A stretch of 64,000 nucleotides of DNA from Flectonema sp. DT1601 (Eukaryota), in contig OZ025790.1 of NCBI GenBank assembly GCA_964019425.1, forward strand, positions 372,001 through 436,000. The letters are read 5' to 3'. Each line of letters opens with the position of its first letter. The stretch's first letter is position 1. The notes beneath the pieces are model-generated. The model made no database searches, was not told the origin of the DNA, and saw only the letters and a list, made by a program, of their open reading frames with translations. Below are positions 1 through 38,000 of this stretch, piece after piece. Made by a program: the position numbers and the translations under genes.

Positions 1-971
1 ATAGGCTGGGCTGCAGTTTAGATGTCTTAGGTGTTAATAAGGGGTTCCTCTTAGCATTTTTCTTTGTTCCCACCTTATGATTTTCTTGAAGAAAAAAAAT
101 AGAAGTCATAATGGTGCTTCCCTCTGGAAGGGTTGTAAGCCATGGTGTCCAACTAAATTAAAGGACAAGTCTGGGATAATCCCTGCCAGAGGGGCGAGTA
201 TTCTACCATGGTTGAAATACTCTGGCAACTGATCTTCAATTTTATGTTGTTTGTTAGCTGCTGGTGTATCTTGATTATGTGTTGATACTTGCATTTTTTT
301 ATTTGTAATCTTCTATTACAATTCTCTTTCTGTTCTGGTCTGTTACTTCATTTGTCTTGTTTAACTTCAGTTATATCCATTTTACTTTTTATTGTTTCCC
401 ATCTACTTTTTATTTTCTATTAGTTCTGGTCAGAAACTCCTGGGCAGCAAGAAGGAAAGCAGTTTAGTACTTCTGGGTGTTTGGCATCACCCCCCATAGT
501 GAGCAAGTACAACAGGTAGCATTGGTAGTCTGTTGATCCTGAGTGATCCCAGCTACAGTTTTGTTTTTCTTTCTTTTTTTTAGAAGAAGATCAGGACATC
601 CAAGCACTGCTGGATAGTTGCTGAATGCAGGGCCTGCCTGTGGCATTATAATAACAGGCTAAGTCATTTGTAGTTCATAGTTTACCTTTGATTTTATAAC
701 TTCACACAGGGTACTATGAACGATGAGAGATCCAGTGGGATCACTCAGGGTCTAGTAGAGACCACCAATGTTGTGCGTTGATAGGCAAGGTGATCAACCT
801 TGACATTCTTTCTTTTCTCTCCTGTTGTGACAAACACAAAATACATGCACAGCTTACAGTGTGTTCTTTGTGTATGTTTTCTTCAGGTGTGAGTAGTTTT
901 TTTGTTCTTGCTCTTCAGGGAGGGCCTTAGCCAAAAGCTAACAGTCCAAATCTCACCTGGTAACTTAACTC
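1..971. repeat. Repeat family A (unit ~1.36 kb), partial copy ending at the fixed terminus ...AACTC
   Basis: Near-identical sequence recurs at 11.6-14.5k, 19.8-23.4k and 39-45k, and the same short ORFs recur in the track. Confidence 0.9.
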
Positions 972-2883
972 ATAATGTCACACAGTCATGTGGCAAGCTG
1001 AATAAGAAATTTGGGAGAGGAATAGGGGCAGTGAACTTTTGATTCAGGCCCTTCCCAACGAACAGGACGAAGACTTCTAAAACCTGAGATGAACCAATTG
1101 AGTTGAAACAAACAAATAACAGAGACGCAACACATACCGGAACATCATCGCAAGCAATGCTTCGGACCTCCGTCGACCTTCGTTCTTCCGGCGGCAAAGG
1201 GAAACAAGAAAGAACGGGCAATGAGACAAACCTGTTAGTTGGTGTTGTGTTGTTGTTAAAAACAAAAACATAAACGCCAGGAAGTTCGACAACGAAGACA
1301 TCGACATCGATCGCTACTCTGCAGATGTCCGGCGGGTGTTTGTCTACACTGTGTTTATTGTTTGTTTTTTTCCCAAGGTTCAACCCTGGGAAGAGAAGTA
1401 AAAAATTCCGTCAGTGTTGGCCTTCCTGTTCGAAGGTGCGCACCAATGACGATAAATAGAGTGGGGGGGAGAAAACCTTTGATCCAACTGGATCCCTTCA
1501 CGAGCTGACATTGCCATGTGAAGTTAAATATTCTGGCGATGCCAGCTCAGGCGACTTAGCCTGCTTTTTTCTTTAAATAAAAAAAATAAAAAGATACCAA
1601 CAGGTGGGGTGATGGGTTGCGCCACTGCAATCCAGTCACAAAAAGAAACAAAGGTAATCTCCAGGGTTCTCGACCCTTGGCTCTCCCTGCGCAAGCATCG
1701 CATGGAGGGTGACGCTAAGCACCCGGGGGGTACGAAACAAACTTTCCCCCTGCTGTCCTGTTTGAAATAAAAAAAAAAAAAAAAAAAAAAACAAAGGGAT
1801 AGAAGTAAACAGAATACATTACACCTCAACAGGTGACGCTAAACACCCAGGGGATACAAACCAAACTTTCCCCCTGTTGCCCTGTTTGAAATAAATTAAA
1901 AAAAAGAACAAGAAAACAGAATACAATACTCAGCAATCAGACTCGTTCACTCGCTTCGTCAGAGCCGTTCGAGCCGATGCTCATGTAAAGTTACCTGTTT
2001 TCTTTTAACAAATTAAATAAAATAAAATAAAAATAAAGTATACAAACCAAACTTTCCCTGGAATACAATACCTAACAATCAGTGCGTTCACTGGCCTTAG
2101 GGCTGTTCGGACTTATGCTTTGGACTGTTCCCTTGCAGAAAAAAAAGTAAAATAAACCAACTTTGGGACATTAGAAAAGCATAAAATAAAAGTTGCTACA
2201 ACCAAAAGACAACTGCAAAAAATAAGGTTTTTGTAGGGGAGCTACAATGTAGCAATAATGTCACACAGTCATGTGGCAAGCTGAATAAGAAATTTGGGAG
2301 AGGAATAGGGGCAGTGAACTTTTGATTCAGGCCCTTCCCAACGAACAGGACGAAGACTTCTAAAACCTGAGATGAACCAATTGAGTTGAAACAAACAAAT
2401 AACAGAGACGCAACACATACCGGAACATCATCGCAAGCAATGCTTCGGACCTCCGTCGACCTTCGTTCTTCCGGCGGCAAAGGGAAACAAGAAAGAACGG
2501 GCAATGAGACAAACCTGTTAGTTGGTGTTGTGTTGTTGTTAAAAACAAAAACATAAACGCCAGGAAGTTCGACAACGAAGACATCGACATTGATCGCTGC
2601 TCTGCAGATGTCCGGCGGGTGTTTGTCTACACTGTGTTTATTGTTTGTTTTTTTCCCAAGGTTCAACCCTGGGAAGAGAAGTAAAAAATTCCGTCAGTGT
2701 TGGCCTTCCTGTTCGAAGGTGCGCACCAATGACGATAAATAGAGTGGGGGGGAGAAAACCTTTGATCCAACTGGATCCCTTCACGAGCTGACATTGCCAT
2801 GTGAAGTTAAATATTCTGGCGATGCCAGCTCAGGCGACTTAGCCTGTTTTTTTCTTTAAATAAAAAAAATAAAAAGATACCAC
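972..2883. repeat. Repeat family C, ~1.5 tandem copies of a 1283-bp unit
   Basis: Identical ORFs at 1077 and 2360 (offset 1283); the family recurs at 9905-11620 and 16385-19286. Confidence 0.9.
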
Positions 2884-3395
2884 ATCGACTATGTCGATTA
2901 CTTTCTATTTTCCGTCCTGGTCAGGACGCTAAACTGATTGTTTTTTCTTTAAAAAATAAATAAAAAGAATAAAAAAGAAAAAAAAAAAAAAAAAAGAATA
3001 AACAATGTTATCATTGTTTTGTTATCGATCGACTTTGTCGACTAATTTCTATTTTCCGTCCTGGTCAAGACGCTAAACTGATTGTTTTTTCTTTAAAAAA
3101 TAAATAAAAAGAATAAAAAAAAAAAAAACAAAAAAAAAAGAATAAACAATGTTATCATTGTTTTTTTATCGATCGACTATGTCGATCACTTTCTATTTTT
3201 CGTCCTGGTCAGGACGCTAAACTGATTGTTTTTTCTTTAAAAATAAATAAAAAGAATAAAAAAAAAAAGAAAAAAGGAATAAACAATGTTATCATTGTTT
3301 TTATTTTATCGATCGACTATGTCGATTACTTTCTATTTTCCGTCCTGGTCAAGACGCTAAACTGATTGTTTTTTCTTTAAAAAATAATAAGAAGG

Positions 3396-3427
<32 letters not shown>

Positions 3428-3713
3428 AATAAACAATGTTATCATTGTTTTTTTATCGATCGACTATGTCGATCACTTTCTATTTTTCGTCCTGGTCAAG
3501 ACGCTAAACTGATTGTTTTTTCTTTAAAAATAATAAAAAGGATTTAAAAAAAAAATAAAAAAAAAAAAAAAAAGATTAAACAATGTTATCATTGTTTTTT
3601 TTTATCGATCGACTATGTCGATCACTTTCTATTTTCCGTCCTGGTCAAGACGCTAAACTGATTGTTTTTTTTTCAAAATTAATAAAAAAGAATATAAAAA
3701 AAAAATAAAAAAA
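2884..3713. repeat. ~120-bp satellite array, A-rich orientation
   Basis: Repeated AACAATGTTATCATTGTT, ATCGATCGAC and CGTCCTGGTCA(A/G)GACG blocks separated by poly-A tracts. Confidence 0.95.
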
Positions 3714-4147
3714 GAATTTCGATAAAGTGGGAAGTAACGGACTGGGAGCTTTTGGCTCCTGCCCTATTCCCGATGTAAACTTTCTTTTTATTTTTTATTT
3801 TTTTTAACAGGCCCAAAGGGCGACAATGATGGTTGCTGACCAAGGAATAATATTCAAATGAATTTTCGTTTCAAAGAAACGAACAGAATTAAGAGAGAGG
3901 CAGAGAAAAAAAAGAAAAAAAAGAAAGAAAAGAAAAAAGAAAAAAAAATATGAAGAGGAAATAATCAAACATGAAAAAAAAAAAAAAAAATATATAAATA
4001 AAAAAACGTTGTATGAAAAAGGAAAAAAAAAATAAAGACCAGAAAAGGAAAGAGAAAATGAAAAGGTATAATATTATTGTGGGGATATGAGGGATAGCAG
4101 GGAGATGCTCTTTTTTTTTTTTTTTTTTATTTTTTTTTTTTTATTTA
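3714..4147. repeat. Family B terminal cap module (~430 bp) adjoining satellite arrays
   Basis: Begins GAATTTCGATAAAGTGGGAAG. Copies at ~9480-9904, ~15960-16384, ~31930-35378 (split by a transposon), ~35843-36270 and ~38749-39047. Confidence 0.85.
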
Positions 4148-5122
4148 TTATTTAAAAAAAAAGGAAACAATCAGTTTAGTGTCTCGATCAGGACGGAAAA
4201 TAGAAATTAATCGACATAGTCGATCGATAGAAAAAAAAACAATGATAACATTGTTTATTCTTTTTTTTTTTTTTTTTTTTTTTTTAAATCCTTTTAATTA
4301 TTTTAAAGAAAAAACTTCCGTTTAGCGTCTTGACCAGGACAGAAAATAGAAAGTAATCGACATAGTCGATCGATAAAAAAAAAACAATGATAACATTGTT
4401 TATTCCTTTTTTTTTTTTTTTTTTTTTTTTAACTTTTTATTTATTTCTTAAAGAAAAAACAATCAGTTTAGCGTCCTGACCAGGACGGAAAATAGAAAGT
4501 AATCGACATAGTCGATCGATAAAAAAAACAATGATAACATTGTTTATTCCTTTTTTTTTTTTTTTTTTTATTTATCTTTTTATTTATTTTTTAAAGAAAA
4601 AACAATCAGTTTAGCGTCCTGACCAGGACGGAAAATAGAAATTAGTCGACAAAGTCGATCGATAAGAAACAATGATAACATTGTTTATTCATTTTTTTTT
4701 TTTTTTTTTTTTTATATTCTTTTTATTAATTTTTAAAAAAAAAAAAAAAATCAGTTTAGCGTCTTGACCAGGACGGAAAGTAGACAGTAATCGACAAAGT
4801 CGATCGATAAAAAAAACAATGATAACATTGTTTATTTCTTTTTTTTTTTTTTTTTTTTTTATATCTTTTATTTATTTTTTAAAGGAATAAACAATCAGTT
4901 TAGCGTCTTGACCAGGACGGAAAATAGAAATTAGTCGACAAAGTCGATCGATAAGAACCAATGATAACATTGTTTATTCATTTTTTTTTTTTTTTTTTTT
5001 TATTCTTTTTATTTATTTTTTAAAGAAAAAAATAATCAGTTTAGCGTCTTGACCAGGACGGAAAATAGAAATTAGTCGACAAAGTCGATCGATAAAAAAA
5101 AACAATGATAACATTGTTTATT

Positions 5123-5156
<34 letters not shown>

Positions 5157-5523
5157 TCTTTTATTTATTTTTAAAGAAAAAACAATCAGTTTAGCGTCTT
5201 GACCAGGACGGAAAATAGAAATTAGTCGACAAAGTCGATCGATAAGAAACAATGATAACATTGTTTATTCTTTTTTTTTTTTTTTTTTTTTTTATTCTTT
5301 TTATTTATTTTTTAAAGAAAAGAAAACGGAAAATAGAAATTAGTCGACAGAGTCGATCGATAAAAAAACAATGATAACATTGTTTATTCTTTTTTTTTTT
5401 TTTTTTTTTTTATTCTTTTTATTTATTTTTAGAAAAACAATCAGTTTAGCGTCTTGACCAGGACGGAAAATAGAAATTAGTCGACAAAGCCGATCGATAA
5501 AAACAATGATAACATTGTTTATT

Positions 5524-5558
<35 letters not shown>

Positions 5559-6860
5559 TTTTTTTTTAATTTATTTTTAAAGAAGAAACAATCAATTTAG
5601 CGTCTTGACCAGGACGGAAAATAGAAAGTAATCGACATAGTCGATCGATAAAAAAACAATGATAACATTGTTTATTCTTTTTTTTTTTTTTTTTTTTATT
5701 CTTTTTTATTTATTTTTAAAGAAAAAAAAATAGAAATTAGTCGACAAGGTCGAACGATAAAAAAAAACAATGATAACATTGTTTAATCTTTTTTTTTTTA
5801 TTTTTTTTTTATTTTTTTTTTATTTTTTTTATTATATTCTTTTTTATTAATTTTGAAAAAAACAATCAGTTTAGCGTCTTGACCAGGACGGAAAATAGAA
5901 AGTAATCGACATAGTCGATCGATAAAAAAACAATGATAACATTGTTTATTCTTTTTTTTTTTTTTTTTTAAATTCTTTTTTATTTATTTTTAAAGAAAAA
6001 AACGGAAAATAGAAATTAGTCGACAAGGTCGAACGATAAAAAAAACAATGATAACATTGTTTAATCTTTTTTTTTTATTTTTTTTTTATATTCTTTTTTA
6101 TTAATTTTGAAAAAAACAATCAGTTTAGCGTCTTGACCAGGACGGAAAATAGAAAGTAATCGACATAGTCGATCGATAAAAAAACAATGATAACATTGTT
6201 TATTCTTTTTTTTTTTTTTTTAAATTCTTTTTATTTATTTTTTAAAGAAAAAAAAAAAAATAGAAATTAGTCGACAGAGTCGATCGATAAAAAAAACAAT
6301 GATAACATTGTTTATTCTTTTTTTTTTTTTTTATTTTTTTTTTTTTATATTCTTTTTTAATTTTGAAAAAAAAAACAATCAGTTTAGCGTCTTGACCAGG
6401 ACGGAAAATAGAAAGTGATCGACATAGTCGATCGATAAAAAAAAAAAAAAAAAAAAATGATAACATTGTTTATTCTTTTTTTGTTTTTTAAATTCTTTTT
6501 ATTTATTTTTAAAGAAAAAAAACGGAAAATAGAAATTAGTCGACAAAGTCGAACGATAGAAAAAATAATGATAACATTGTTTATTCTTTTTTTTTTTTTA
6601 TTTTTTTTTTTATATTCTTTTTTATTAATTTTGAAAAAAACAATCAGTTTAGCGTCTTGACCAGGACGGAAAATAGAAAGTAATCGACATAGTCGATCGA
6701 TAAAAAAACAATGATAACATTGTTTAATCTTTTTTTTTTTTTTTTTTTAAATTCTTTTTATTTATTTTTTAAAGAAAAAAAACGGAAAATAGAAATTAGT
6801 CGACAGAGTCGATCGATAAAAAAAAACAATGATAACATTGTTTGATCTTTTATAATTTTT
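4148..6860. repeat. ~100/120-bp satellite array, T-rich orientation
   Basis: More than 20 monomers, reverse complement of the 2884-3713 array. Confidence 0.95.
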
Positions 6861-7083
6861 TTTTTTTTATTTGTTTTATTTGTTTTTAAAAAAAAAAAAA
6901 AAAAAACAAGCGGAATTGATCATAATGGGTGGTAGGGGTTGTTATAACTTCGTTTGAAAATTCTTCTTTTTTGATTTCTTTTTTTTTTTTTTTCTTTTTA
7001 TAGGAGTTAAGATCACTTTCAGGAGACAACACATGAACAAGAGCAGCAAGCAGAGTTGACACTATCAATTCAGATTTGAAATA

Positions 7084-7385
7084 CTGCAACTGGAAATATT
7101 ACTGCGCGGAAAAAACCGCACTAATTTCCAAATCTGCAAAAAACCGCACTAATTTTTCCACGCAGTAATATTTCCACCGCACTAATATTTCTGCTCAGAA
7201 GTGATTTTTTCTCCAGCTGCATTTTTCTGCTGGTGCCTTACACAGCAAAAAAGCAACCAAATTTTTTTCTACCACCAAGTGGAAAAAACCGCACTAATCT
7301 TTTCTCAAAAAAACCGCACTAATTTTTCCGCGCAGTAATATTTCCCCGCAATAATTATTCAGCGCAGTAATATTTCCAGTTGCAG
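7084..7385. mobile_element. ~300-bp MITE with 24-bp TIRs and TA target duplication (Tc1/mariner-type)
   Basis: TA|CTGCAACTGGAAATATTACTGCGC ... GCGCAGTAATATTTCCAGTTGCAG|TA; second copy at 23995-24295. Confidence 0.85.
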
Positions 7386-7826
7386 TACCGGGAATTAATT
7401 TACAAGGAGGTATCTCAAGTGACTTGCTATCTCTAGCGTGTCGGTATCTCTGGAGTGCTGGTATCTCGTATGTGCGTTGGTATCTCATGAGTGATGGTAT
7501 CTCTTGTGCATTAGAAAAACGAAAAAGAATGTCATGACCATGACGGAAGAATTGAGGAATTGAGTTAACATGTTCAATTTAACTTATTTAAACTTTTTTT
7601 TTTTTTTAACAGACCGTAACTATTTGAAAATAAAATGTAGATGGGAAACAGTGAAAAGTAAAATGGATGATAAAATTAATTGAGAAATATGACATAACAG
7701 ACCAGATAGAGAGTATTAAAAGGAAAATGAAAAGGAAAAGAGAAACTAGGTTAACACTTATTTAAATTAAGACCGGTTAGTCAGTTTAAGGTCCTGACTA
7801 GGACCAACAAAAAAGAAAGAAAAAAA

Positions 7827-8250
7827 TTAACGATCAAGCTGAGCTGATCTTGTTTTTATTACAAATAGGGGAGCGGGAGGGATGGAAGGAATAGAGGAAA
7901 AAAAAAGAAAAGGTTGATCAATTGGATCTGATCGTCGAGAAGAAGAAATTATTTTAAAGGTTGATCGGTATAGCCGATCGTTGAGAAAAATAAACAGATA
8001 TAAATACAATCAGTTTAAATTAAAAAAGAAAAAAAGATTAACGATCAAGCTGAGCTGATCTTGTTTTTATTTAAAATTAGGGGAGCGGGAGGGATGGAAG
8101 GAATAAAGGAAAAAAAAAAAAAAAAAAAAGGTCGATCAATTTGATCTGATCGTCGAGAAGAAGAAAACAATTATTTTAAAAAAATGATCGGTATAGCCGA
8201 TCGTTGAGAAAAGAACAGATATAAATACAATCGGTTTTGGTGATCGACGA
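7827..8250. repeat. Tandem duplication, two ~211-bp copies
   Basis: TTAACGATCAAGCTGAGCTGATC starts at 7827 and again at 8038 with matching downstream sequence. Confidence 0.8.
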
Positions 8251-8547
8251 GTGGAGCGATCACTTGACAAGAAGGAAAAAGAAAGGACCGATTAATTGGG
8301 GCTTTGGTTGTATTCCCAAGGCATATTTTTTTTTTTTTTTTTTTATTATTCATTTACATTATTTATTTTTTTTTTTTTTTTAAATTAATAATCACATTTT
8401 GTTCAAAAATATTTCATATTAGAGTAAAAGAAAAAGAAAAAAAGAAATAAGAGAAAAAAAAAAAAAAAAAACCATTGCTGGCCCCCTCACCACTCATAGA
8501 GGATGAGGAGGCCAGTAAGGCGTCACTCAAATCATACATAAACAATA

Positions 8548-9189
8548 ATAAACAATGTTATCATTGTTTTTTTTTTTATTGTTCGACTTTGTTGACTAAT
8601 TTCTATTTTCCGTTTTTTTTCTTTTTAAAAAATAAATAAAAAGAATTTAAAAAAAAAAAAAAAAAAAAGAATAAACAATGTTATCATTGTTTTTTTTTCA
8701 TCGATCGACTATGTCGATTACTTTCTATTTTCCGTCCTGGTCAAGACGCTAAACTGATTGTTTTTTTTTCAAAATTAATAAAAAAGAATATAAAAAAAAA
8801 CAAAAACAAAAAGAATAAACAATGTTATCATTGTTTTTTTTTTATCGTTCGACTTTGTCGACTAATTTTTATTTTCCGTTTTTTTTTCTTTAAAAATAAA
8901 TAAAAAGAATTTAAAAAAAAAAAAAAAAAAAAAGAATAAACAATGTTATCATTGTTTTTTTATCGATCGACTATGTCGATCACTTTCTATTTTCCGTCCT
9001 GGTCAAGACGCTAAACTGATTGTTTTTTCTTTAAAATAATAAAAAGGATTAAAAAAAAAAAAAAAAAAAAAAAAAAGAATAAACAATGTTATCATTGTTT
9101 TTTATCGATCGACTATGTCGATCACTTTCTATTTTCCGTCCTGGTCAAGACGCTAAACTGATTGTTTTTTCTTTAAAAAATAATTAAAA

Positions 9190-9224
<35 letters not shown>

Positions 9225-9904
9225 TTAATCAATGTTATCATTGTTTTTTTATCGATCGACTAAGTCGATCACTTTCAATTTTCCGTCCTGGTCAGGACGC
9301 TAAACTGATTGTTTTTTCTTTAAAAATAAATGAAAAGAACAAAAAAAAAAAAAAAAAAAAAAGGAATAAACAATGTTATCATTGTTTTTTTTCTATCGAT
9401 CGACTATGTCGATTAATTTCTATTTTCCGTCCTGATCGAGACGCTAAACTGATTGTTTCCTTTTTTTAAATAATAAATAAAAAAAAAAAAAAAAAAAAAA
9501 AAAGAGCATCTCCCTGCTATCCTCATATCCCCACAATAATATTATACCTTTTCATTTTCTCTTTCCTTTTCTGGTCTTTTTTTTTCTTTTTTTCCTTTTT
9601 CATACAACGTTTTTTATTTATATTTTTTTTTTTTTTTTTTTTTTTCATGTTTGATTATTTCCTCTTCATATTTTTTTTTTTCTATTCTTTCTTTTTTTTT
9701 TTTTTTTTTTTCTCTGCCTCTCTCTCAATTCTGTTCGTTTCTTTGAAACGAAAATTCATTTGAATATTATTCCTTGGTCAGCAACCATCATTGTCGCCCT
9801 TTGGGCCTGTTAAAAAAAAAAATAAAAATAAAAAGAAAGTTTACATCGGGAATAGGGCAGGAGCCAAAAGCTCCCAGTCCGTTACTTCCCACTTATCGAA
9901 ATTC
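8548..9904. repeat. Satellite array plus family B cap
   Basis: Satellite monomers to ~9480, then the cap ending CGAAATTC at 9904. Confidence 0.9.
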
Positions 9905-11620
9905 ACAGGTGGGGTGATGGGTTGCGCCACTGCAATCCAGTCACAAAAAGAAACAAAGGTAATCTCCAGGGTTCTCGACCCTTGGCTCTCCCTGCGCAAG
10001 CATCGCATGGAGGGTGACGCTAAGCACCCGGGGGGTACGAAACAAACTTTCCCCCTGCTGTCCTGTTTGAAATAAAAAAAAAAAAAAAAAAAAAACAAAG
10101 GGATAGAAGTAAACAGAATACATTACACCTCAACAGGTGACGCTAAACACCCAGGGGATACAAACCAAACTTTCCCCCTGTTGCCCTGTTTGAAATAAAT
10201 TAAAAAAAAGAACAAGAAAACAGAATACAATACTCAGCAATCAGACTCGTTCACTCGCTTCGTCAGAGCCGTTCGAGCCGATGCTCATGTAAAGTTACCT
10301 GTTTTCTTTTAACAAATTAAATAAAATAAAATAAAAATAAAGTATACAAACCAAACTTTCCCTGGAATACAATACCTAACAATCAGTGCGTTCACTGGCC
10401 TTAGGGCTGTTCGGACTTATGCTTTGGACTGTTCCCTTGCAGAAAAAAAAGTAAAATAAACCAACTTTGGGACATTAGAAAAGCATAAAATAAAAGTTGC
10501 TACAACCAAAAGACAACTGCAAAAAATAAGGTTTTTGTAGGGGAGCTACAATGTAGCAATAATGTCACACAGTCATGTGGCAAGCTGAATAAGAAATTTG
10601 GGAGAGGAATAGGGGCAGTGAACTTTTGATTCAGGCCCTTCCCAACGAACAGGACGAAGACTTCTAAAACCTGAGATGAACCAATTGAGTTGAAACAAAC
10701 AAATAACAGAGACGCAACACATACCGGAACATCATCGCAAGCAATGCTTCGGACCTCCGTCGACCTTCGTTCTTCCGGCGGCAAAGGGAAACAAGAAAGA
10801 ACGGGCAATGAGACAAACCTGTTAGTTGGTGTTGTGTTGTTGTTAAAAACAAAAACATAAACGCCAGGAAGTTCGACAACGAAGACATCGACATCGATCG
10901 CTACTCTGCAGATGTCCGGCGGGTGTTTGTCTACACTGTGTTTATTGTTTGTTTTTTTCCCAAGGTTCAACCCTGGGAAGAGAAGTAAAAAATTCCGTCA
11001 GTGTTGGCCTTCCTGTTCGAAGGTGCGCACCAATGACGATAAATAGAGTGGGGGGGAGAAAACCTTTGATCCAACTGGATCCCTTCACGAGCTGACATTG
11101 CCATGTGAAGTTAAATATTCTGGCGATGCCAGCTCAGGCGACTTAGCCTGCTTTTTTCTTTAAATAAAAAAAATAAAAAGATACCAACAGGTGGGGTGAT
11201 GGGTTGCGCCACTGCAATCCAGTCACAAAAAGAAACAAAGGTAATCTCCAGGGTTCTCGACCCTTGGCTCTCCCTGCGCAAGCATCGCATGGAGGGTGAC
11301 GCTAAGCACCCGGGGGGTACGAAACAAACTTTCCCCCTGCTGTCCTGTTTGAAATAAAAAAAAAAAAAAAAAAAAAAACAAAGGGATAGAAGTAAACAGA
11401 ATACATTACACCTCAACAGGTGACGCTAAACACCCAGGGGATACAAACCAAACTTTCCCCCTGTTGCCCTGTTTGAAATAAATTAAAAAAAAGAACAAGA
11501 AAACAGAATACAATACTCAGCAATCAGACTCGTTCACTCGCTTCGTCAGAGCCGTTCGAGCCGATGCTCATGTAAAGTTACCTGTTTTCTTTTAACAAAT
11601 TAAATAAAATAAAATAAAAA
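9905..11620. repeat. Repeat family C, ~1.3 copies
   Basis: Matches 972-2883. Confidence 0.9.
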
Positions 11621-14541
11621 TTTTATTTTCAGCTTAATTAGCTACAAATTGTTTCTACTAAGTGTTTCTCACTTAGTTTTTTTTTTTTGCTTTTCAGCTC
11701 CTTAAAAGCTGCTAAGTGTTTCTGCTAAGTGTTTCTCACTTAGAATTTTATTTTTATGTTCGTTTTCTATCCCTTCTCCTATCCCTTTTGTTCAAAATGA
11801 GCGGGAGGAAATTCTCTCATTCACGCTAAGATGCACTCTGAACTTTGATTTTTTGATCTGAGTGTGAGGGAATGACCTGTTAGTGCATTGGGCATAGGCT
11901 GGGCTGCAGTTTAGATGTCTTAGGTGTTAATAGGGGGTTCCTCTTAGCATTTTTCTTTGTTCCCACCTTATGATTTTCTTGAAGAAAAAAAATAGAAGTC
12001 ATAATGGTGCTTCCCTCTGGAAGGGTTGTAAGCCATGGTGTCCAACTAAATTAAAGGACAAGTCTGGGATAATCCCTGCCAGAGGGGCGAGTATTCTACC
12101 ATGGTTGAAATACTCTGGCAACTGATCTTCAATTTTATGTTGTTTGTTAGCTGCTGGTGTATCTCGATCATGTGTTGATACTTGCATTTTTTTTTTATTT
12201 GTAATCTTTTACTACAATAACTCTTGCAATTATCTTTTCTTTTTTATTCTCTATCTGTTCTGGTCTGTTTCTTCATTTTTTTACATTAATAATTACATTT
12301 TGTTCAAAAAGAAAAAAAAAGAAAAAGATTTCATATTAGAAACTAGGAAACTAGGTTAACACTTAGTTAAAATTAAGACCGGTTAGTCAGTTTAAGGTCT
12401 TGTCTAGGACCAACATTCTTGTTTAACTTCAGTTATATTCATTTTACTTTTTATTGTTTCCCATCTGTTTTTATTTTCTATTAGTTCTGGTCAGAAACCC
12501 CTGGGCAGCAAGAAGGAAAGCAGTTTAGTACTTCTGGGTGTTTGGCATCACCCCCCATAGTGAGCAAGTACAACAGGTAGCATTGGTAGTCTGTTGATCC
12601 TGAGTGATCCCAGCTACAGTTTTGTTTTTCTTTCTTTTTTTTAGAAGAAGATCAGGACATTCAAGCACTGCTGGATAGTTGCTGAATGCAGGGCCTGCCT
12701 GTGGCATTATAATAACAGGCTAAGTCATTTGTAGTTCATAGTTTACCTTTGATTTTATAACTTCACATAGGGTACTATGAACGATGAGAGATCCAGTGGG
12801 ATCACTCAGGGTCTAGTAGAGACCACCAATGTTGTGCGTTGATAGGCAAGGTGACCAACCTTGACATTCTTTCTTTTCTCTCCTGTTGTGACAAACACAA
12901 AATACACACACAGCTTACAGTGTGTTCTTTGTGTATGTTTTCTTCAGGTGTGAGTAGTTTTTTTGTTCTTGCTCTTCAGGGAGGGCCTTAGCCAAAAGCT
13001 AACAGTCCAAATCTCACCTGAAAATTCAACTCAGTCCTTGTCAGTTTTGGCATCAAACTTGTAATGGTTTAATCATTACAGGTTATTTACTGAAATATTT
13101 GTTCTAAAAGTTGCTAAGTATTTCTCACTTAGAAATTTTTTATTTTTTTATTTTCAGCTTAATTAGCTACAAATTGTTTCTACTAAGTGTTTCTCACTTA
13201 GTTTTTTTTTTTTGCTTTTCAGCTCCTTAAAAGCTGCTAAGTGTTTCTGCTAAGTGTTTCTCACTTAGAATTTTATTTTTATGTTCGTTTTCTATCCCTT
13301 CTCCTATCCCTTTTGTTCAAAATGAGCGGGAGGAAATTCTCTCATTCACGCTAAGATGCACTCTGAACTTTGATTTTTTGATCTGAGTGTGAGGGAATGA
13401 CCTGTTAGTGCATTGGGCATAGGCTGGGCTGCAGTTTAGATGTCTTAGGTGTTAATAGGGGGTTCCTCTTAGCATTTTTCTTTGTTCCCACCTTATGATT
13501 TTCTTGAAGAAAAAAAATAGAAGTCATAATGGTGCTTCCCTCTGGAAGGGTTGTAAGCCATGGTGTCCAACTAAATTAAAGGACAAGTCTGGGATAATCC
13601 CTGCCAGAGGGGCGAGTATTCTACCATGGTTGAAATACTCTGGCAACTGATCTTCAATTTTATGTTGTTTGTTAGCTGCTGGTGTATCTCGATCATGTGT
13701 TGATACTTGCATTTTTTTTTATTTGTAATCTTTTACTACAATAACTCTTGCAATTATCTTTTCTTTTTTATTCTCTATCTGTTCTGGTCTGTTTCTTCAT
13801 TTTTTTACATTAATAATTACATTTTGTTCAAAAAGAAAAAAAAAGAAAAAGATTTCATATTAGAAACTAGGAAACTAGGTTAACACTTAGTTAAAATTAA
13901 GACCGGTTAGTCAGTTTAAGGTCTTGTCTAGGACCAACATTCTTGTTTAACTTCAGTTATATTCATTTTACTTTTTATTGTTTCCCATCTGTTTTTATTT
14001 TCTATTAGTTCTGGTCAGAAACCCCTGGGCAGCAAGAAGGAAAGCAGTTTAGTACTTCTGGGTGTTTGGCATCACCCCCCATAGTGAGCAAGTACAACAG
14101 GTAGCATTGGTAGTCTGTTGATCCTGAGTGATCCCAGCTACAGTTTTGTTTTTCTTTCTTTTTTTTAGAAGAAGATCAGGACATTCAAGCACTGCTGGAT
14201 AGTTGCTGAATGCAGGGCCTGCCTGTGGCATTATAATAACAGGCTAAGTCATTTGTAGTTCATAGTTTACCTTTGATTTTATAACTTCACATAGGGTACT
14301 ATGAACGATGAGAGATCCAGTGGGATCACTCAGGGTCTAGTAGAGACCACCAATGTTGTGCGTTGATAGGCAAGGTGACCAACCTTGACATTCTTTCTTT
14401 TCTCTCATGTTGTGACAAACACAAAATACACACACAGCTTACAGTGTGTTCTTTGTGTATGTTTTCTTCAGGTGTGAGTAGTTTTTTTGTTCTTGCTCTT
14501 CAGGGAGGGCCTTAGCCAAAAGCTAACAGTCCAAATCTCAC
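11621..14541. repeat. Repeat family A, long variant (1525-bp period), ~2 copies
   Basis: Identical ORFs at 11999 and 13524. Confidence 0.9.
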
Positions 14542-15516: not shown

Positions 15517-15551
<35 letters not shown>

Positions 15552-15806: not shown

Positions 15807-15843
<37 letters not shown>

Positions 15844-16384: not shown

Positions 16385-19286
16385 ACAGGTGGGGTGATGG
16401 GTTGCGCCACTGCAATCCAGTCACAAAAAGAAACAAAGGTAATCTCCAGGGTTCTCGACCCTTGGCTCTCCCTGCGCAAGCATCGCATGGAGGGTGACGC
16501 TAAGCACCCGGGGAGTACGAAACAAACTTTCCCCCTGCTGTCCTGTTTGAAATAAAAAAAAAAAAAAAAAAAAAACAAAGGGATAGAAGTAAACAGAATA
16601 CATTACACCTCAACAGGTGACGCTAAACACCCAGGGGATACAAACCAAACTTTCCCCCTGTTGCCCTGTTTGAAATAAATTAAAAAAAAGAACAAGAAAA
16701 CAGAATACAATACTCAGCAATCAGACTCGTTCACTCGCTTCGTCAGAGCCGTTCGAGCCGATGCTCATGTAAAGTTACCTGTTTTCTTTTAACAAATTAA
16801 ATAAAATAAAATAAAAATAAAGTATACAAACCAAACTTTCCCTGGAATACAATACCTAACAATCAGTGCGTTCACTGGCCTTAGGGCTGTTCGGACTTAT
16901 GCTTTGGACTGTTCCCTTGCAGAAAAAAAAGTAAAATAAACCAACTTTGGGACATTAGAAAAGCATAAAATAAAAGTTGCTACAACCAAAAGACAACTGC
17001 AAAAAATAAGGTTTTTGTAGGGGAGCTACAATGTAGCAATAATGTCACACAGTCATGTGGCAAGCTGAATAAGAAATTTGGGAGAGGAATAGGGGCAGTG
17101 AACTTTTGATTCAGGCCCTTCCCAACGAACAGGACGAAGACTTCTAAAACCTGAGATGAACCAATTGAGTTGAAACAAACAAATAACAGAGACGCAACAC
17201 ATACCGGAACATCATCGCAAGCAATGCTTCGGACCTCCGTCGACCTTCGTTCTTCCGGCGGCAAAGGGAAACAAGAAAGAACGGGCAATGAGACAAACCT
17301 GTTAGTTGGTGTTGTGTTGTTGTTAAAAACAAAAACATAAACGCCAGGAAGTTCGACAACGAAGACATCGACATCGATCGCTACTCTGCAGATGTCCGGC
17401 GGGTGTTTGTCTACACTGTGTTTATTGTTTGTTTTTTTCCCAAGGTTCAACCCTGGGAAGAGAAGTAAAAAATTCCGTCAGTGTTGGCCTTCCTGTTCGA
17501 AGGTGCGCACCAATGACGATAAATAGAGTGGGGGGGAGAAAACCTTTGATCCAACTGGATCCCTTCACGAGCTGACATTGCCATGTGAAGTTAAATATTC
17601 TGGCGATGCCAGCTCAGGCGACTTAGCCTGCTTTTTTCTTTAAATAAAAAAAATAAAAAGATACCAACAGGTGGGGTGATGGGTTGCGCCACTGCAATCC
17701 AGTCACAAAAAGAAACAAAGGTAATCTCCAGGGTTCTCGACCCTTGGCTCTCCCTGCGCAAGCATCGCATGGAGGGTGACGCTAAGCACCCGGGGGGTAC
17801 GAAACAAACTTTCCCCCTGCTGTCCTGTTTGAAATAAAAAAAAAAAAAAAAAAAAAACAAAGGGATAGAAGTAAACAGAATACATTACACCTCAACAGGT
17901 GACGCTAAACACCCAGGGGATACAAACCAAACTTTCCCCCTGTTGCCCTGTTTGAAATAAATTAAAAAAAAGAACAAGAAAACAGAATACAATACTCAGC
18001 AATCAGACTCGTTCACTCGCTTCGTCAGAGCCGTTCGAGCCGATGCTCATGTAAAGTTACCTGTTTTCTTTTAACAAATTAAATAAAATAAAATAAAAAT
18101 AAAGTATACAAACCAAACTTTCCCTGGAATACAATACCTAACAATCAGTGCGTTCACTGGCCTTAGGGCTGTTCGGACTTATGCTTTGGACTGTTCCCTT
18201 GCAGAAAAAAAAGTAAAATAAACCAACTTTGGGACATTAGAAAAGCATAAAATAAAAGTTGCTACAACCAAAAGACAACTGCAAAAAATAAGGTTTTTGT
18301 AGGGGAGCTACAATGTAGCAATAATGTCACACAGTCATGTGGCAAGCTGAATAAGAAATTTGGGAGAGGAATAGGGGCAGTGAACTTTTGATTCAGGCCC
18401 TTCCCAACGAACAGGACGAAGACTTCTAAAACCTGAGATGAACCAATTGAGTTGAAACAAACAAATAACAGAGACGCAACACATACCGGAACATCATCGC
18501 AAGCAATGCTTCGGACCTCCGTCGACCTTCGTTCTTCCGGCGGCAAAGGGAAACAAGAAAGAACGGGCAATGAGACAAACCTGTTAGTTGGTGTTGTGTT
18601 GTTGTTAAAAACAAAAACATAAACGCCAGGAAGTTCGACAACGAAGACATCGACATTGATCGCTGCTCTGCAGATGTCCGGCGGGTGTTTGTCTACACTG
18701 TGTTTATTGTTTGTTTTTTTCCCAAGGTTCAACCCTGGGAAGAGAAGTAAAAAATTCCGTCAGTGTTGGCCTTCCTGTTCGAAGGTGCGCACCAATGACG
18801 ATAAATAGAGTGGGGGGGAGAAAACCTTTGATCCAACTGGATCCCTTCACGAGCTGACATTGCCATGTGAAGTTAAATATTCTGGCGATGCCAGCTCAGG
18901 CGACTTAGCCTGCTTTTTTCTTTAAATAAAAAAAATAAAAAGATACCAACAGGTGGGGTGATGGGTTGCGCCACTGCAATCCAGTCACAAAAAGAAACAA
19001 AGGTAATCTCCAGGGTTCTCGACCCTTGGCTCTCCCTGCGCAAGCATCGCATGGAGGGTGACGCTAAGCACCCGGGGGGTACGAAACAAACTTTCCCCCT
19101 GCTGTCCTGTTTGAAATAAAAAAAAAAAAAAAAAAAAAACAAAGGGATAGAAGTAAACAGAATACATTACACCTCAACAGGTGACGCTAAACACCCAGGG
19201 GATACAAACCAAACTTTCCCCCTGTTGCCCTGTTTGAAATAAATTAAAAAAAAGAACAAGAAAACAGAATACAATACTCAGCAATC
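16385..19286. repeat. Repeat family C, ~2.3 tandem copies
   Basis: Near-identical ORFs at 16980 and 18262 (offset 1282). Confidence 0.9.
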
Positions 19287-19768
19287 ATCTTTTTATTTAT
19301 AAAAAAAAACAATCAGTTTAGCGTCTTGACCAGGACGGAAAATAGAAAGTGATCGACATAGTCGATCGATAAAAAAACAATGATAACATTGTTTATTCTT
19401 TTTTTTTATTTTAAATTCTTTTTATTTATTTTTTAAAGAAAAAAAAACGGAAAATAGAAATTAGTCGACAAAGTCGAACGAAGAAAAAAAACAATGATAA
19501 CATTGTTTATTCTTTTTTTTTATTTTAAAATCTTTTTATTTATTTTTTAAAGAAAAAAACTGAAAATAGAAATTAGTCGACAAAGTCGAACGATAAAAAA
19601 AACAATGATAACATTGTTTATTCTTTTTTTTTATTTTAAATTCTTTTTATTTATTTTTTAAAGAAAAGAAACGGAAAATAGAAATTAGTCCGATAAAAAA
19701 AAAAACAATGATAACATTGTTTATTCTTTTTTTTATTTTTTTTTTTATATTCTTTTTTATTAATTTTG
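19287..19768. repeat. Short satellite array
   Basis: Four to five monomers with AACAATGATAACATTGTT. Confidence 0.9.
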
Positions 19769-22700
19769 GGATCACTCAGGGTCTAGTAGAGACCACCAAT
19801 GTTGTGCGTTGATAGGCAAGGTGACCAACCTTGACATTCTTTCTTTTCTCTCCTGTTGTGACAAACACAAAATACACGCACAGCTTACAGTGTGTTCTTT
19901 GTGTATGTTTTCTTCAGGTGTGAGTAGTTTTTTTGTTCTTGCTCTTCAGGGAGGGCCTTAGCCAAAAGCTAACAGTCCAAATCTCACCTGGTAAACTCAA
20001 CTCAGTCTTTGTCAGTATTGGCATCAAACCTGTAATGGTTACATTAACTACCATTTCAACAGGTTATTTACTGAAATATTTGTTCTAAAAGTTGCTAAGT
20101 ATCTCTCACTTAGAAATTTTTTTTATTTTTTTATTTTCAGCTCAATTAGCTACAAAGTGTTTCTACTAAGTGTTTCTCACTTAGATTTTTTTTTTTGCTT
20201 TTCAGCTCCTTAAAAGCTGCTAAGTATTTTTGCTAAGTGTTTCTCACTTAGAATCTTATTGTTATGTTCGTTTTCTATCCCTTCTCCTATCCCTTTTGTT
20301 CAAAAAAAGCGGGAGGAAATTCTCTCATTCATGCTAAGATGCACTCTGAACTTTGATTTTTTTGATCTGAGTGTGAGGGAATAACCTGTTAGTGCATTGG
20401 GCATAAGCTGGGCTGCAGTTTAGATGTCTTAGGTGTTAATAAGGGGTTCCTCTTAGCATTTTTCTTTGTTCCCACCTTATGATTTTCTTGAAGAAAAAAA
20501 ATAGAAGTCATAATGGTGCTTCCCTCTGGAAGGGTTGTAAGCCATGGTGTCCAACTAAATTAAAGGACAAGTCTGGGATAATCCCTGCCAGAGGGGCGAG
20601 TATTCTACCATGGTTGAAATACTCTGGCAACTGATCTTCAATTTTATGTTGTTTGTTAGCTGCTGGTGTATCTTGATTATGTGTTGATACTTGCATTTTC
20701 TTATTTGTAATCTTCTATTACAATTCTCTTTCTGTTCTGGTCTGTTACTTCATTTGTCTTGTTTAACTTCAGTTATATCCATTTTACTTTTTATTGTTTC
20801 CCATCTACTTTTTATTTTCTATTAGTTCTGGTCAGAAACTCCTGGGCAGCAAGAAGGAAAGTAGTTTAGTACTTCTGGGTGTTTGGCATCACCCCCCATA
20901 GTGAGCAAGTACAACAGGTAGCATTGGTAGTCTGTTGATCCTGAGTGATCCCAGCTACAGTTTTGTTTTTCTTTCTTTTTTTTAGAAGAAGATCAGGACA
21001 TCCAAGCACTGCTGGATAGTTGCTGAATGCAGGGCCTGCCTGTGGCATTATAATAACAGGCTAAGTCATTTGTAGTTCATAGTTTACCTTTGATTTTATA
21101 ACTTCACATAGGTACTATGAACGATGAGAGATCCAGTGGGATCACTCAGGGTCTAGTAGAGACCACCAATGTTGTGCGTTGATAGGCAAGGTGACCAACC
21201 TTGACATTCTTTCTTTTCTCTCCTGTTGTGACAAACACAAAATACACACACAGCTTACAGTGTGTTCTTTGTGTATGTTTTCTTCAGGTGTGAGTAGTTT
21301 TTTTGTTCTTGCTCTTCAGGGAGGGCCTTAGCCAAAAGCTAACAGTCCAAATCTCACCTGGAAATTCAACTCAGTCCTTGTCAGTTTTGGCATCAAACTT
21401 GTAATGGTTTAATCATTACAGGTTATTTACTGAAATATTTGTTCTAAAAGTTGCTAAGTATTTCTCACTTAGAATTTTTTTTTATTTTTTTATTTTCAGC
21501 TTAATTAGCTACAAATTGTTTCTACTAAGTGTTTCTCACTTAGATTTTTTTTTTGCTTTTCAGCTCCTTAAAAGCTGCTAAGTGTTTCTGCTAAGTGTTT
21601 CTCACTTAGAATCTTATTGTTATGTTCGTTTTCTATCCCTTCTCCTATCCCTTTTGTTCAAAATAAGCGGGAGGAAATTCTCTCATTCACGCTAAGATGC
21701 ACTCTGAACTTTGATTTTTTGATCTGAGTGTGAGGGAATGACCTGTTAGTGCATTGGGCATAAGCTGGGCTGCAGTTTAGATGTCTTAGGTGTTAATAAG
21801 GGGTTCCTCTTAGCATTTTTCTTTGTTCCCACCTTATGATTTTCTTGAAGAAAAAAAATAGAAGTCATAATGGTGCTTCCCTCTGGAAGGGTTGTAAGCC
21901 ATGGTGTCCAACTAAATTAAAGGACAAGTCTGGGATAATCCCTGCCAGAGGGGCGAGTATTCTACCATGGTTGAAATACTCTGGCAACTGATCTTCAATT
22001 TTATGTTGTTTGTTAGCTGCTGGTGTATCTTGATCATGTGTTGATACTTGCATTTTCTTATTTGTAATCTTCTATTACAATTCTCTTTCTGTTCTGGTCT
22101 GTTACTTCATTTGTCTTGTTTAACTTCAGTTATATCCATTTTACTTTTTATTGTTTCCCATCTACTTTTTATTTTCTATTAGTTCTGGTCAGAAACTCTT
22201 GGGCAGCAAGAAGGAAAGTAGTTTAGTACTTCTGGGTGTTTGGCATCACCCCCCATAGTGAGCAAGTACAACAGGTAGCATTGGTAGTCTGTTGATCCTG
22301 AGTGATCCCAGCTACAGTTTTGTTTTTCTTTCTTTTTTTTAGAAGAAGATCAGGACATCCAAGCACTGCTGGATAGTTGCTGAATGCAGGGCCTGCCTGT
22401 GGCATTATAATAACAGGCTAAGTCATTTGTAGTTCATAGTTTACCTTTGATTTTATAACTTCACATAGGGTACTATGAACGATGAGAGATCCAGTGGGAT
22501 CACTCAGGGTCTAGTAGAGACCACCAATGTTGTGCGTTGATAGGCAAGGTGACCAACCTTGACATTCTTTCTTTTCTCTCCTGTTGTGACAAACACAAAA
22601 TACACACACAGCTTACAGTGTGTTCTTTGTGTATGTTTTCTTCAGGTGTGAGTAGTTTTTTTGTTCTTGCTCTTCAGGGAGGGCCTTAGCCAAAAGCTAA

Positions 22701-23376
22701 CAGTCCAAATCTCACCTGGAAATTCAACTCACTCTGTTCTGGTCTGTTACTTCATTTGTCTTGTTTAACTTCAGTTATATCCATTTTACTTTTTATTGTT
22801 TCCCATCTACTTTTTATTTTCTATTAGTTCTGGTCAGAAACTCCTGGGCAGCAAGAAGGAAAGTAGTTTAGTACTTCTGGGTGTTTGGCATCACCCCCCA
22901 TAGTGAGCAAGTACAACAGGTAGCATTGGTAGTCTGTTGATCCTGAGTGATCCCAGCTACAGTTTTGTTTTTCTTTCTTTTTTTTAGAAGAAGATCAGGA
23001 CATCCAAGCACTGCTGGATAGTTGCTGAATGCAGGGCCTGCCTGTGGCATTATAATAACAGGCTAAGTCATTTGTAGTTCATAGTTTACCTTTGATTTTA
23101 TAACTTCACACAGGGTACTATGAACGATGAGAGATCCAGTGGGATCACTCAGGGTCTAGTAGAGACCACCAATGTTGTGCGTTGATAGGCAAGGTGACCA
23201 ACCTTGACATTCTTTCTTTTCTCTCCTGTTGTGACAAACACAAAATACACGCACAGCTTACAGTGTGTTCTTTGTGTATGTTTTCTTCAGGTGTGAGTAG
23301 TTTTTTTGTTCTTGCTCTTCAGGGAGGGCCTTAGCCAAAAGCTAACAGTCCAAATCTCACCTGGTAAACTCAACTC
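19769..23376. repeat. Repeat family A tandem array (1357-bp period) plus a 645-bp truncated copy
   Basis: ORF offsets 20508 to 21865 and 22223 to 22868. Confidence 0.9.
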
Positions 23377-31775: not shown

Positions 31776-31782
31776 TTAAAAA

Positions 31783-35074: not shown

Positions 35075-35137
35075 ATATATATTTTTTTTTTTTTTTTTTT
35101 TTCATGTTTGATTATTTCCTCTTCATTTTTTTTTTTC

Positions 35138-35170
<33 letters not shown>

Positions 35171-35378
35171 TTCTCTGCCTCTCTCTTAATTCTGTTCGTT
35201 TCTTTGAAACGAAAATTCATTTGAATATTATTCCTTGGTCAGCAACCATCATTGTCGCCCTTTGGGCCTGTTAAAAAAAATAAAAATAAATTTCGATAAA
35301 GTGGGAAGAAAGTTTACATCGGGAATAGGGCAGGAGCCAAAAGCTCCCAGTCCGTTACTTCCCACTTTATCGAAATTC

Positions 35379-36034
35379 ATTGTTTTTTCTTTAAAAAATA
35401 AATAAAAAGTTAAAAAAAAAAAAAAAAAGGAATAAACAATGTTATCATTGTTTTTTTATCGATCGACTATGTCGATTACTTTCTATTTTCCGTCCTGGTC
35501 AAGACGCTAAACTGATTGTTTTTTCTTTAAAATAATTAAAAGGATTTAAAAAAAAAAAAAAAAAAAAAAGAATAAACAATGTTATCATTGTTTTTTTTTC
35601 TATCGATCGACTATGTCGATTAATTTCTATTTTCCGTCCTGATCGAGACGCTAAACTGATTGTTTCCTTTTTTTTAAATAATAAATAAAAAAAAAAAAAA
35701 ATAAAAAAATAAAAAAAAAGAGCATCTCCCTGCTATCCCTCATATCCCCACAATAATATTATACCTTTTCATTTTCTCTTTCCTTTTCTGGTCTTTTTTT
35801 TTTTTTTTTTTTTTTTTTTTCCTTTTTCATACAACGTTTTTTGAATTCGATAGAGTGGGAAGTAACGGACTGGGAGCTTTTGGCTCCTGCCCTATTCCCG
35901 ATGTAAACTTTCTTTTTATTTTTTATTTTTTTTTAACAGGCCCAGAGGGCGACAATGACTGTTGCTGACCAAGGAATACTATTCAAATGAATTTTCGTTT
36001 CAAAGAAACGAACAGAATTAAGAGAGAGGCAGAG

Positions 36035-36065
<31 letters not shown>

Positions 36066-36240
36066 AGAAATATGAAGAGGAAATAATCAAACATGAAAAA
36101 AATAAAAAAAAAATAAAATATAAATAAAAAACGTTGTATGAAAAAGGAAAAAAAAGAAAAAAAAGAAAAAAGACCAGAAAAGGAAAGAGAAAATGAAAAG
36201 GTATAATATTATTGTGGGGATATGAGGATAGCAGGGAGAT

Positions 36241-36271
<31 letters not shown>

Positions 36272-36646
36272 TTTATTATTTAAAAAAAGGAAACAATCAG
36301 TTTAGCGTCTCGATCGGGACGGAAAATAGAAATTAATCGACATAGTCGATCGATAGAAAAAAAAACAATGATAACATTGTTTATTCTTTTTTTTTTTTTT
36401 TTTTTAAATTCTTATTATTTATTTTTTAAAGAAAAAAAAACGGAAAATAAAAATTAGTCGACAAAGTCGAACGATAAAAAAAAACAATGATAACATTGTT
36501 TATTCTTTTTTTTTTGTTTTTTTTTTATATTCTTTTTTATTAATTTTGAAAAAAAAAACAATCAGTTTAGCGTCCTGACCAGGACGAAAAATAGAAAGTG
36601 ATCGACATAGTCGATCGATAAAAAAACAATGATAACATTGTTTATT

Positions 36647-36678
<32 letters not shown>

Positions 36679-38000
36679 CCTTCTTATTATTTTTTAAAGA
36701 AAAAACAATCAGTTTAGCGTCTTGACCAGGACGGAAAATAGAAAGTAATCGACATAGTCGATCGATAAAAAAACAATGATAACATTGTTTAATCTTTTTT
36801 TTTTTAAATTCTTTTTATTTATTTTTTAAAGAAAAAAAAAAAGGAAAATAGAAATTAGTCGACAAAGTCGAACGATAAAAAAACAATGATAACATTGTTT
36901 ATTCTTTTTTTTTTATTTTTTTTATATTTTTTTTTAATTAATTTTGAAAAAAAAACAATCAGTTTAGCGTCTTGACCAGGACGGAAAATAGAAAGCGATC
37001 GACATAGTCGATCGATAAGAAAACAATGATAACATTGTTTATTCTTTTTTTTTATTTTAAATTCTTTTTATTTATTTTTTAAAGAAAAAAACGGAAAATA
37101 GAAATTAGTCGACAAAGTCGAACGATAAAAAAAAACAATGATAACATTGTTTATTCTTTTTTTTGTATTTTTTTTATATTCTTTTTTATTAATTTTGAAA
37201 AAAAAAAAACAATCAGTTTAGCGTCTTGACCAGGACGGAAAATAGAAAGTGATCGACATAGTCGATCGATAAAAAAAACAATGATAATATTGTTTATTCT
37301 TTTTTTTTTTTTTTTTTTTAAATTCTTTTTATTTATTTTTTAAAGAAAAAAAATGGAAAATAGAAAATAGTCAACAAAGTCGAACGATAAAAAAAACAAT
37401 GATAACATTGTTTATTCTATTTTTTTATTTTTATTTTTTTTCTATTCTTTTTTATTAATTTTGAAAAAAAAAACAATCAGTTTAGCGTCTTGACCAGGAC
37501 GGAAAATAGAAAGTAATCGACATAGTCGATCGATAAAAAAAACAATGATAACATTGTTTATTCTTTTTTTTTTTTTAAATTCTTTTTATTTATTTTTTAA
37601 AAAGAAAAAAAACGGAAAATAGAAATTAGTCAACAAAGTCGAACGATAAAAAAAAAACAATGATAACATTGTTTATTCTTTTTTTTTTTTTTTTTTTATA
37701 TTCTTTTTTATTAATTTTGAAAAAAAAAACAATCAGTTTAGCGTCTTGACCAGGACGGAAAATAGAAAGTAATCGACATAGTCGATCGATAAAAAAACAA
37801 TGATAACATTGTTTAATCTTTTTTTTTTTAAATTCTTTTTATTTATTTTTTAAAGAAAAAAAAACGGAAAATAGAAATTAGTCGACAAAGTCGAACGATA
37901 AAAAAACAATGATAACATTGTTTATTCTTTTTTTTTATTTTTTTTTTTTATATTTTTTTTTTAATTAATTTTGAAAAAAAAACAATCAGTTTAGCGTCTT
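35379..38000. repeat. Divergently oriented satellite arrays separated by back-to-back cap modules
   Basis: A-rich array at 35379-35700, caps at ~35700-36270, T-rich array at ~36271-38000. Confidence 0.9.

Follow-up and report, generated by a model that had tools for sequence, protein, structure and literature searches.

A 27-nt covarying stem-loop shared by three repeat families and its possible recognition by a borrowed Penelope-like reverse transcriptase

What mobilises repeats that share a short hairpin and a fixed end while differing over most of their length? We addressed this question in a 64,000-nt stretch of DNA (the window; Table 1), whose first 45 kb have an A+T content of 66% and are largely made up of nested repeats. 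The initial annotation had described a stem-loop common to two repeat families, A and B, and had proposed it as a cis signal for non-autonomous mobilisation, used either by a rolling-circle (Helitron-like) system or by a reverse transcriptase (RT). With a third family, C, the window contains three otherwise different, putatively non-coding repeat families. Exact head-to-tail arrays are built from a 1358-bp unit in A and a 1283-bp unit in C. In B, a 399-bp body is preceded by a 144-bp satellite and by additional upstream sequence. A 165-aa frame in C has no Pfam match, Rfam returned 0 matches at E<=1 in positions 1-46000 of the window, and ARAGORN found nothing and thus no tRNA head on the repeats. 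In A, 4-5 positions vary in the last 12 nt versus about 31 in positions 401-1300, a pattern that may reflect two haplotypes plus recombinants. The unit starts read AGTCC and AGCTT, and A and C carry small hairpins there. At A unit starts (e.g. 21373-21424), two further hairpins lie in the first 52 nt after the junction; the 13-bp one of the two varies in length among copies and shows a T-G to C-G switch at nt 27.

Both 27-mers of the initial annotation occur where it placed them, at 921-947 for A and 9854-9880 for B. They differ at 5 of 27 positions, four of which are TT/AA versus GG/CC exchanges. A pattern covering both matched 21 times in the window (11 A, 10 B) and never in 100 shuffles. 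With a looser pattern search we identified a third variant, C (AGGGCCTGAATCAAAAGTTCACTGCCC; n=5, minus strand), which had been missed, as had other minus-strand hairpin copies and a decayed A hairpin at 44597 that lacks the outer stem. The window thus holds 11 A, 10 B and 5 C copies plus the decayed A, and variant C is a further covarying variant of the kind named beforehand as a test. The same fold recurs in all three variants: a CAAAA loop on a 5-bp stem (TTAGC/GCTAA in A), which a 1x2 internal loop separates from a 4-bp stem (GGGC/GTCC in A). In each family, outer stems whose sequence differs from family to family extend the structure. Every pairing cell across the variants forms (27/27); 3 of the 9 pairs change on both sides, and 2 more switch between G-U and Watson-Crick pairing. 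This level of pairing and covariation was reached by 14 of 500 shuffles, in a small test of three sequences, and structures slid along the three variants pair at 26-48%. The G-U pairs of all three variants are possible only on the strand on which the hairpin precedes the end. Since folding energy is better than in shuffles only for B (RNA z -2.6, versus 0.0 for A and -0.3 for C), the case for the hairpin is one of conservation, not of stability. Identity between families is 19-22 of 27 nt in the core; in the flanks it is 13-22 of 60 nt on the upstream side and 6-9 of 24 nt on the downstream side. One 99-bp stretch, 80% identical, is common to A and the upstream part of B.

A covariance model, proposed in the initial annotation and run here on the window, recovered the 27 hairpin copies and a 20-nt fragment, together with two further weak matches (E 5.7 and 7.4). 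It gave no match in the LINE, the DNA transposons or any other coding element of the window. We rejected a 10-nt match between variant C and the 3' end of the LINE: these nucleotides are the LINE's last codons, and the fold differs. A degenerate three-variant pattern matched 1 viral and 11 metagenome loci, which we consider chance matches: 0/12 were window-like by BLASTN, and the inner stem was fully paired in 1/12.

The families share a polarity as well as a hairpin. All 10 B hairpins (two of them duplicates) are followed by an end 24-25 nt later; of the 12 A hairpins, 7 are followed by an end at +24/25, 4 by continuation into another unit and one by a cut at +9 (14541). The clustering of breakpoints that had been suggested as a check is therefore seen for A and B in the window. 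The ends first listed hold for A (971, 22730, 23376, ~39365 and ~40778) and for B at 9904, 35378 and 39047, with B 40856 corrected to 40855. That both families end in TC was right for most A and B ends; two B-type ends (41587 and the 20-nt fragment at 35289) instead stop one base short and read GAAATT-T, and besides the A copy cut at +9, four A points are head-to-tail junctions (13032, 20003, 21372 and 44647, the last reading CC). In C, TC|AG lies 26 nt after the hairpin; no C copy ends there and one stops 28 nt further on. TC|AG would be the C end by alignment only. We dropped a splice-acceptor reading of TC|AG, given that the ends fall before AG. A tabulation of junction bases in the window gave A or T after the end in 16/16 independent cases, mostly A (chance 0.665^16 = 0.0015). 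The sequence from 9905 and from 39048, directly after two independent B ends, is ACAGG in each case, with A|ACAGG in either host; this may be chance or a target preference. No poly(A), simple-repeat tail or linker was found at the ends or between tandem units. As for a 30-40 nt tail, 0/7 A ends carry one; one C stops at +28 and one A starts at nt 37. The opposite ends vary, as first described: nine A far ends lie at nine positions, 0 of them at the unit start, and insert lengths are 20, 77, 200, 223, 318, 646, 1320, 2158, 2964 and 4826 bp. The 20-nt insert comprises only the last bases of B, without the hairpin itself.

Table 1. Repeat features of the window.
Feature	Position	Strand
Family A stem-loop	921..947	+
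24-nt spacer to fixed end TC; tail-to-tail with a C copy	948..971	+
C array, 1283-bp unit; copy stops 28 nt past its TC|AG point	972..2882	-
C stem-loop, third variant (others at 2309, 10613, 17093, 18375)	1026..1052	-
B inserted in C at 1599/1600-equivalent: 144-bp satellite and 399-bp body; no duplication, one extra C; contains nested minus-strand B	2883..9904	+
Longest B copy, 4826 bp, in register within the satellite of another B	3714..8539	-
Family B stem-loop; fixed end 9904	9854..9880	+
C array	9905..11621	-
A variant array: partial and near-full unit, extra segment; cut 9 nt past last hairpin	11621..14541	+
Duplicate of 8540-11621	14991-18100	
C array, 2.3 units	16385..19287	-
A partial tandem: truncated unit (from nt 1123) and two full units, end TC	19767..22730	+
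Reference A unit, 1358 bp, putatively non-coding	21373..22730	+
Truncated A (from nt 716), joined directly to preceding A end	22731..23376	+
20-nt B-end fragment without hairpin, in a B body	35289..35308	-
Truncated B in another B; one host base lost, TT shared at far junction	35843..38000	-
Chain: B end, A(1041-end), B piece, A(37-end), B(325-end), A piece	38762..41125	+
223-bp truncated B in A at 1056/1058; 1-2 host bases lost	41587..41809	-
200-bp truncated A in A; one T lost, CC added at far junction	42095..42294	-
Two tandem mini-B ends, 215 bp apart	42932..43238	-
Diverged A, exactly one unit, nt 400 to nt 399 (circularly permuted); AGGGAGGG reads CCCTCCCT, removing outer hairpin stem	43666..44999	+

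Six insertions retain both flanks (A in A, B in A, B in C, B in satellite, B in B, and the 20-nt fragment). The target-duplication check suggested for them gave 0/6 in the window. Each lost 0-2 host bases, and 5/6 far junctions carry 1-3 extra or 2-3 shared bases. These insertions also bear on whether the patchwork is an amplification or assembly chimera. The window does contain many orientation switches among few sequences; however, the hosts resume within 0-2 bases at all six insertions, the copies differ by 1-5%, and the A junction recurs in public contigs (see below), which together make a chimera extremely unlikely. In the stretch 40856-40892, 37 nt after a B end resemble scrambled A nt 497-537 before exact A resumes, possibly through templated repair.

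One fixed end, read-through at the same point and truncation down to 20 nt would point to an enzyme with a set start on a multi-unit or circular template that can stop anywhere. We lean towards A, B and C being non-autonomous retroelements copied by a borrowed Penelope-like RT/endonuclease that recognises the shared stem-loop in their RNA, a reading to which we give somewhat better than even credence. Transcription of the arrays would yield a multi-unit RNA whose CAAAA stem-loop the Penelope-like enzyme binds. The enzyme would nick A/T-rich DNA, often an older copy, and reverse transcription would begin at an internal site of the RNA, either the TC point or the base preceding it. Copying would run upstream through unit junctions until a random drop-off, and host repair would close the far end by microhomology or with 1-3 extra bases. 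In favour of a Penelope-like enzyme we count the polarity, the partial tandems without linker, the parallel of an internal start, the A or T that follows all 16 independent ends, the strand-specific G-U pairs and the public contigs that bridge the A junction. Tandem and partial-tandem copies (pseudo-LTRs) are present in A (19767-22730 and 11621-14541) and in the C arrays, and a fixed 3' end with frequent 5' truncation is present in A and B only. As for the inverted truncated 5' copy of Penelope-like elements, head-to-head junctions lie at 8540, 11621, 19767, 27361, 38000 and 43666, two of them explained as nested insertions. We count against it that the partner RT was not found among the window's coding elements, that none of the six sites has a target duplication, and that a canonical hammerhead core is absent from the sense strands (the core pattern, as we take it to read, occurs once, antisense to A). 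A tail is hinted at only by C +28 and A nt 37, and the TC point of C is not an end in any copy. Helentron-type elements, too, typically have long internal satellites and a hairpin at each end of the unit. By analogy, the repeats appear to behave like non-autonomous Penelope-like elements (PLEs), a class to which they are not assigned here since no partner was seen in the window, and hammerhead and duplication, both with known exceptions, are missing.

The proposal of a cis signal for non-autonomous mobilisation is thus strengthened by the third covarying variant, the clustering at +24/25 and six insertions in continuous hosts; its mechanism had been left as two branches. The RT branch is favoured, in a Penelope-like form with tandem units and no tail rather than as LINE/SINE; the Helitron terminator, the less likely branch, fails the canonical terminal tests. 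If the repeats were SINE-like partners of a LINE, its RT would bind the 3' stem-loop and start at the RNA 3' end. The fixed 3' end, the truncation, the stem-loop and the presence of an APE-RT LINE in the window all fit; however, there is no poly(A) or simple-repeat tail, exact tandems cross the end point, and no tRNA or Rfam head was found on the repeats. The LINE in the window is not the partner, since it generates a 20-bp duplication and the covariance model does not match it. We regard SINE-like mobilisation as very unlikely. The LINE itself lies at 50529-57590 and 63039-64000, with ORF2 at 52311-57491 (1726 aa). Two different cathepsin paralogues carry it at identical CNGG codons, with a 20-bp duplication (AGGTTGCAATGGAGGGTTAA) at the complete copy, and it looks like an element that targets a protein-coding gene family.

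Among the window's genes are two for cathepsins, of which one has a C-terminal DUF3586 domain, as well as those for a short-chain dehydrogenase and a Duc1 protein. We take DUF3586 to be a mark of kinetoplastid and diplonemid cysteine proteases, and the cathepsin that carries it therefore makes a euglenozoan host likely. Several other elements are nested among the repeats. A TA-flanked element in a B body (32084-35076) is bounded by terminal inverted repeats (CAGTCATTCC...) and has an ORF of 740 aa on the minus strand (32506-34728); the ORF lacks a Pfam match, and the element is likely an unclassified DNA transposon. A piggyBac-like remnant (~30148-31778; DDE_Tnp_1_7 fragment) lies between TTAA sites inside the 144-bp satellite. 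One MITE family occurs at ~25188-25950 and ~38010-38750, with 4-bp duplications TTCT and TATA; a second, with TACTGCAACTGG... ends and internal 16-bp repeats, occurs at 7082-7387 and 23993-24297, the latter copy nested in an AAAGGG-rich palindromic element.

A possible but doubtful alternative is that the repeats are non-autonomous rolling-circle DNA elements. A Helitron-type HUH transposase would bind the hairpin, nick at TC|A and roll round a circle or array, leaving one exact and one repaired end. The absence of target duplication at 6/6 sites agrees with this, as do the small hairpins at the A and C starts, the exact tandem units with one circularly permuted copy, and the central satellite of B. 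Including its outer stems, the hairpin ends about 11-15 nt before the end, compared with 10-12 nt in Helitrons. Tandem truncated Helitrons are reported from plants (second-hand via PMC5148889), and Helitron ORFs from Diplonema (PMC10161547). The termini speak against it. The repeats have no 5'-TC and, as the initial annotation had pointed out, no canonical CTRR-3', their ends reading AACTC and AATTC; the end is followed by A or T rather than by T throughout. An inverted-repeat test of the A and C unit ends found no 11-18 nt inverted repeat (best exact match 7 nt), and the best alignment was equalled by 160/2000 shuffles for A and 1917/2000 for C. Furthermore, 0 copies have both ends precise, and the 20-nt end fragment would better fit an aborted RT start.

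Words of A occur in 16 of the 20 public sequencing runs listed (from 12 studies), 13 of which hold half or more of A; contigs were inspected in eight of the 20. No RNA run is among those listed with A, and the single RNA run inspected yielded 0 reads, which says nothing about transcription. In runs X1 and X2, a contig bridges the A end to the A start with the unit's exact first 35 nt. Run X6 has a closed A unit in a 1388-nt contig, and run X1 a closed 1352-nt unit that contains the last 76 nt of B, the other part being 1276 letters. All runs may share one source, and they therefore show that the A junction is real, not by what route it formed. Contig depth is higher on the 3' part of A, and unique genes at 45.7-48.9 kb have next to no cover in four runs; depth is not usable as evidence in either case. 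Public runs that contain the A unit bear many different organism labels, suggestive of a contaminant common to them or of a co-occurring organism.

Closed contigs raise the question of whether A, C and the 1352-nt unit exist as extrachromosomal circles in large numbers, be they organellar minicircles or a plasmid-like replicon, with the hairpin as replication origin and nicked concatemers patching nuclear breaks. The unit sizes are close (1358, 1283 and 1352 bp), runs with several different organism labels contain closed contigs of unit length, and the A copy at 43666-44999 is exactly one permuted unit. Yet circles and tandem arrays yield closed contigs equally, B has a satellite and nested transposons with target duplications, and one near-blunt signature is common to six insertions. 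The kinetoplast CSB-1/2/3 motifs, as we take them to read, are not common to the units either, with one 10/12 CSB-3-like match on the opposite strand of B. On balance, such circles are quite unlikely. Rather improbable, too, is a more speculative scheme of putatively non-coding circular replicons of ~1.3 kb, constrained in size, in at least three classes (A, C and the 1352-nt unit with B's end) that would share only a stem-loop origin. Their enzyme would be neither a described PLE nor a described Helitron, and integration would be one-ended and near-blunt.

What is new here is a compact covarying signal common to three families in a host that is likely euglenozoan. The RNA feature recognised by a Penelope-like RT has so far been located no more closely than to a region, 172 nt long in PAc, the Poseidon PLE of Anolis (PMC11167929). 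A 27-nt structure kept by covariation in three families would be a minimal candidate element for RT recognition and a handle on the partner enzyme. A partner of PLE type would belong to a lineage, likely Euglenozoa, for which we found no dedicated Penelope paper, only passing mentions in the available text on diplonemids and Euglenozoa. The D. papillatum genome has LINE, SLACS, TATE, MULE and Helitron ORFs (PMC10161547); its supplements gave 0 matches to Penelope, Helitron or PLE, a weak result given that the main text does name Helitron. For an HUH partner, the termini fit none of the Helitron classes described.

Among the DNA elements, canonical Helitron1 likewise has a hairpin shortly before a fixed end and makes no duplication, but the repeats lack its TC start, CTRR end and A|T target. 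Helitron2/Helentron elements (DINE-1/HINE, FoHeli; PMC4067079, PMC5148889, PMC11417382) resemble them in that a 3' stem-loop stands 8-35 nt from the end, tandem repeats lie at the centre, targets are not duplicated, the surroundings are T-rich and self-insertion occurs; subterminal inverted repeats of at least 11 nt, a T|T target and a two-ended copy are missing here. Replitrons (PMC10288648) share one precise end and a terminal hairpin. As for the terminal direct repeats that frame whole Replitron copies, the best exact direct match here is 6 nt, among copies without two defined ends. Unlike in Replitrons, truncation spans kilobases rather than a short fuzzy end. As far as the available text of these papers describes them, neither Replitrons (PMC10288648) nor Paramecium Helitrons (PMC13085455) are a closer match.

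Tandem non-autonomous PLE derivatives are already known (bioRxiv 10.64898/2026.07.22.740005), as are partial tandems in PLEs and in non-autonomous Chlamys elements, MRC1 among them (PMC8557442). These Chlamys elements form multicopy head-to-tail inserts with a partner-like 3' end and no hammerhead (PMC8557442); through 5' truncation, the median length of de novo Chlamys inserts is 128 bp (bioRxiv 2022.05.23.493040). Copies of Penelope in Adineta mostly have 8-10 bp duplications, with microhomology-joined exceptions (PMC3846280). Like Chlamys-N/MRC1 (PMC8557442) and retrozymes (bioRxiv 10.64898/2026.07.22.740005), the repeats described here are non-coding head-to-tail partial tandems with strong 5' truncation, in families alike chiefly at the 3' end. 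They differ from both in that the shared part is a 27-nt covarying stem-loop, that there is no target duplication and that no partner was seen in the window. Compared with non-LTR retrozymes (bioRxiv 10.64898/2026.07.22.740005), the units are 1.28-1.36 kb rather than 51-972 bp and have no hammerhead; Naiad and Chlamys also lack one, as do the A, B and C sense strands. Purified PAc first nicks A/T-rich DNA and then starts reverse transcription internally, at two adjacent sites in a stem-loop of a multi-copy RNA (PMC11167929). Its start sites lie inside the stem-loop, whereas those proposed here would lie 24-25 nt past the core, where a tail is doubtful; as in PAc, an internal RT start at fixed adjacent sites would be tied to a stem-loop, and the targets are A/T-rich and include the element's own copies (PMC11167929).
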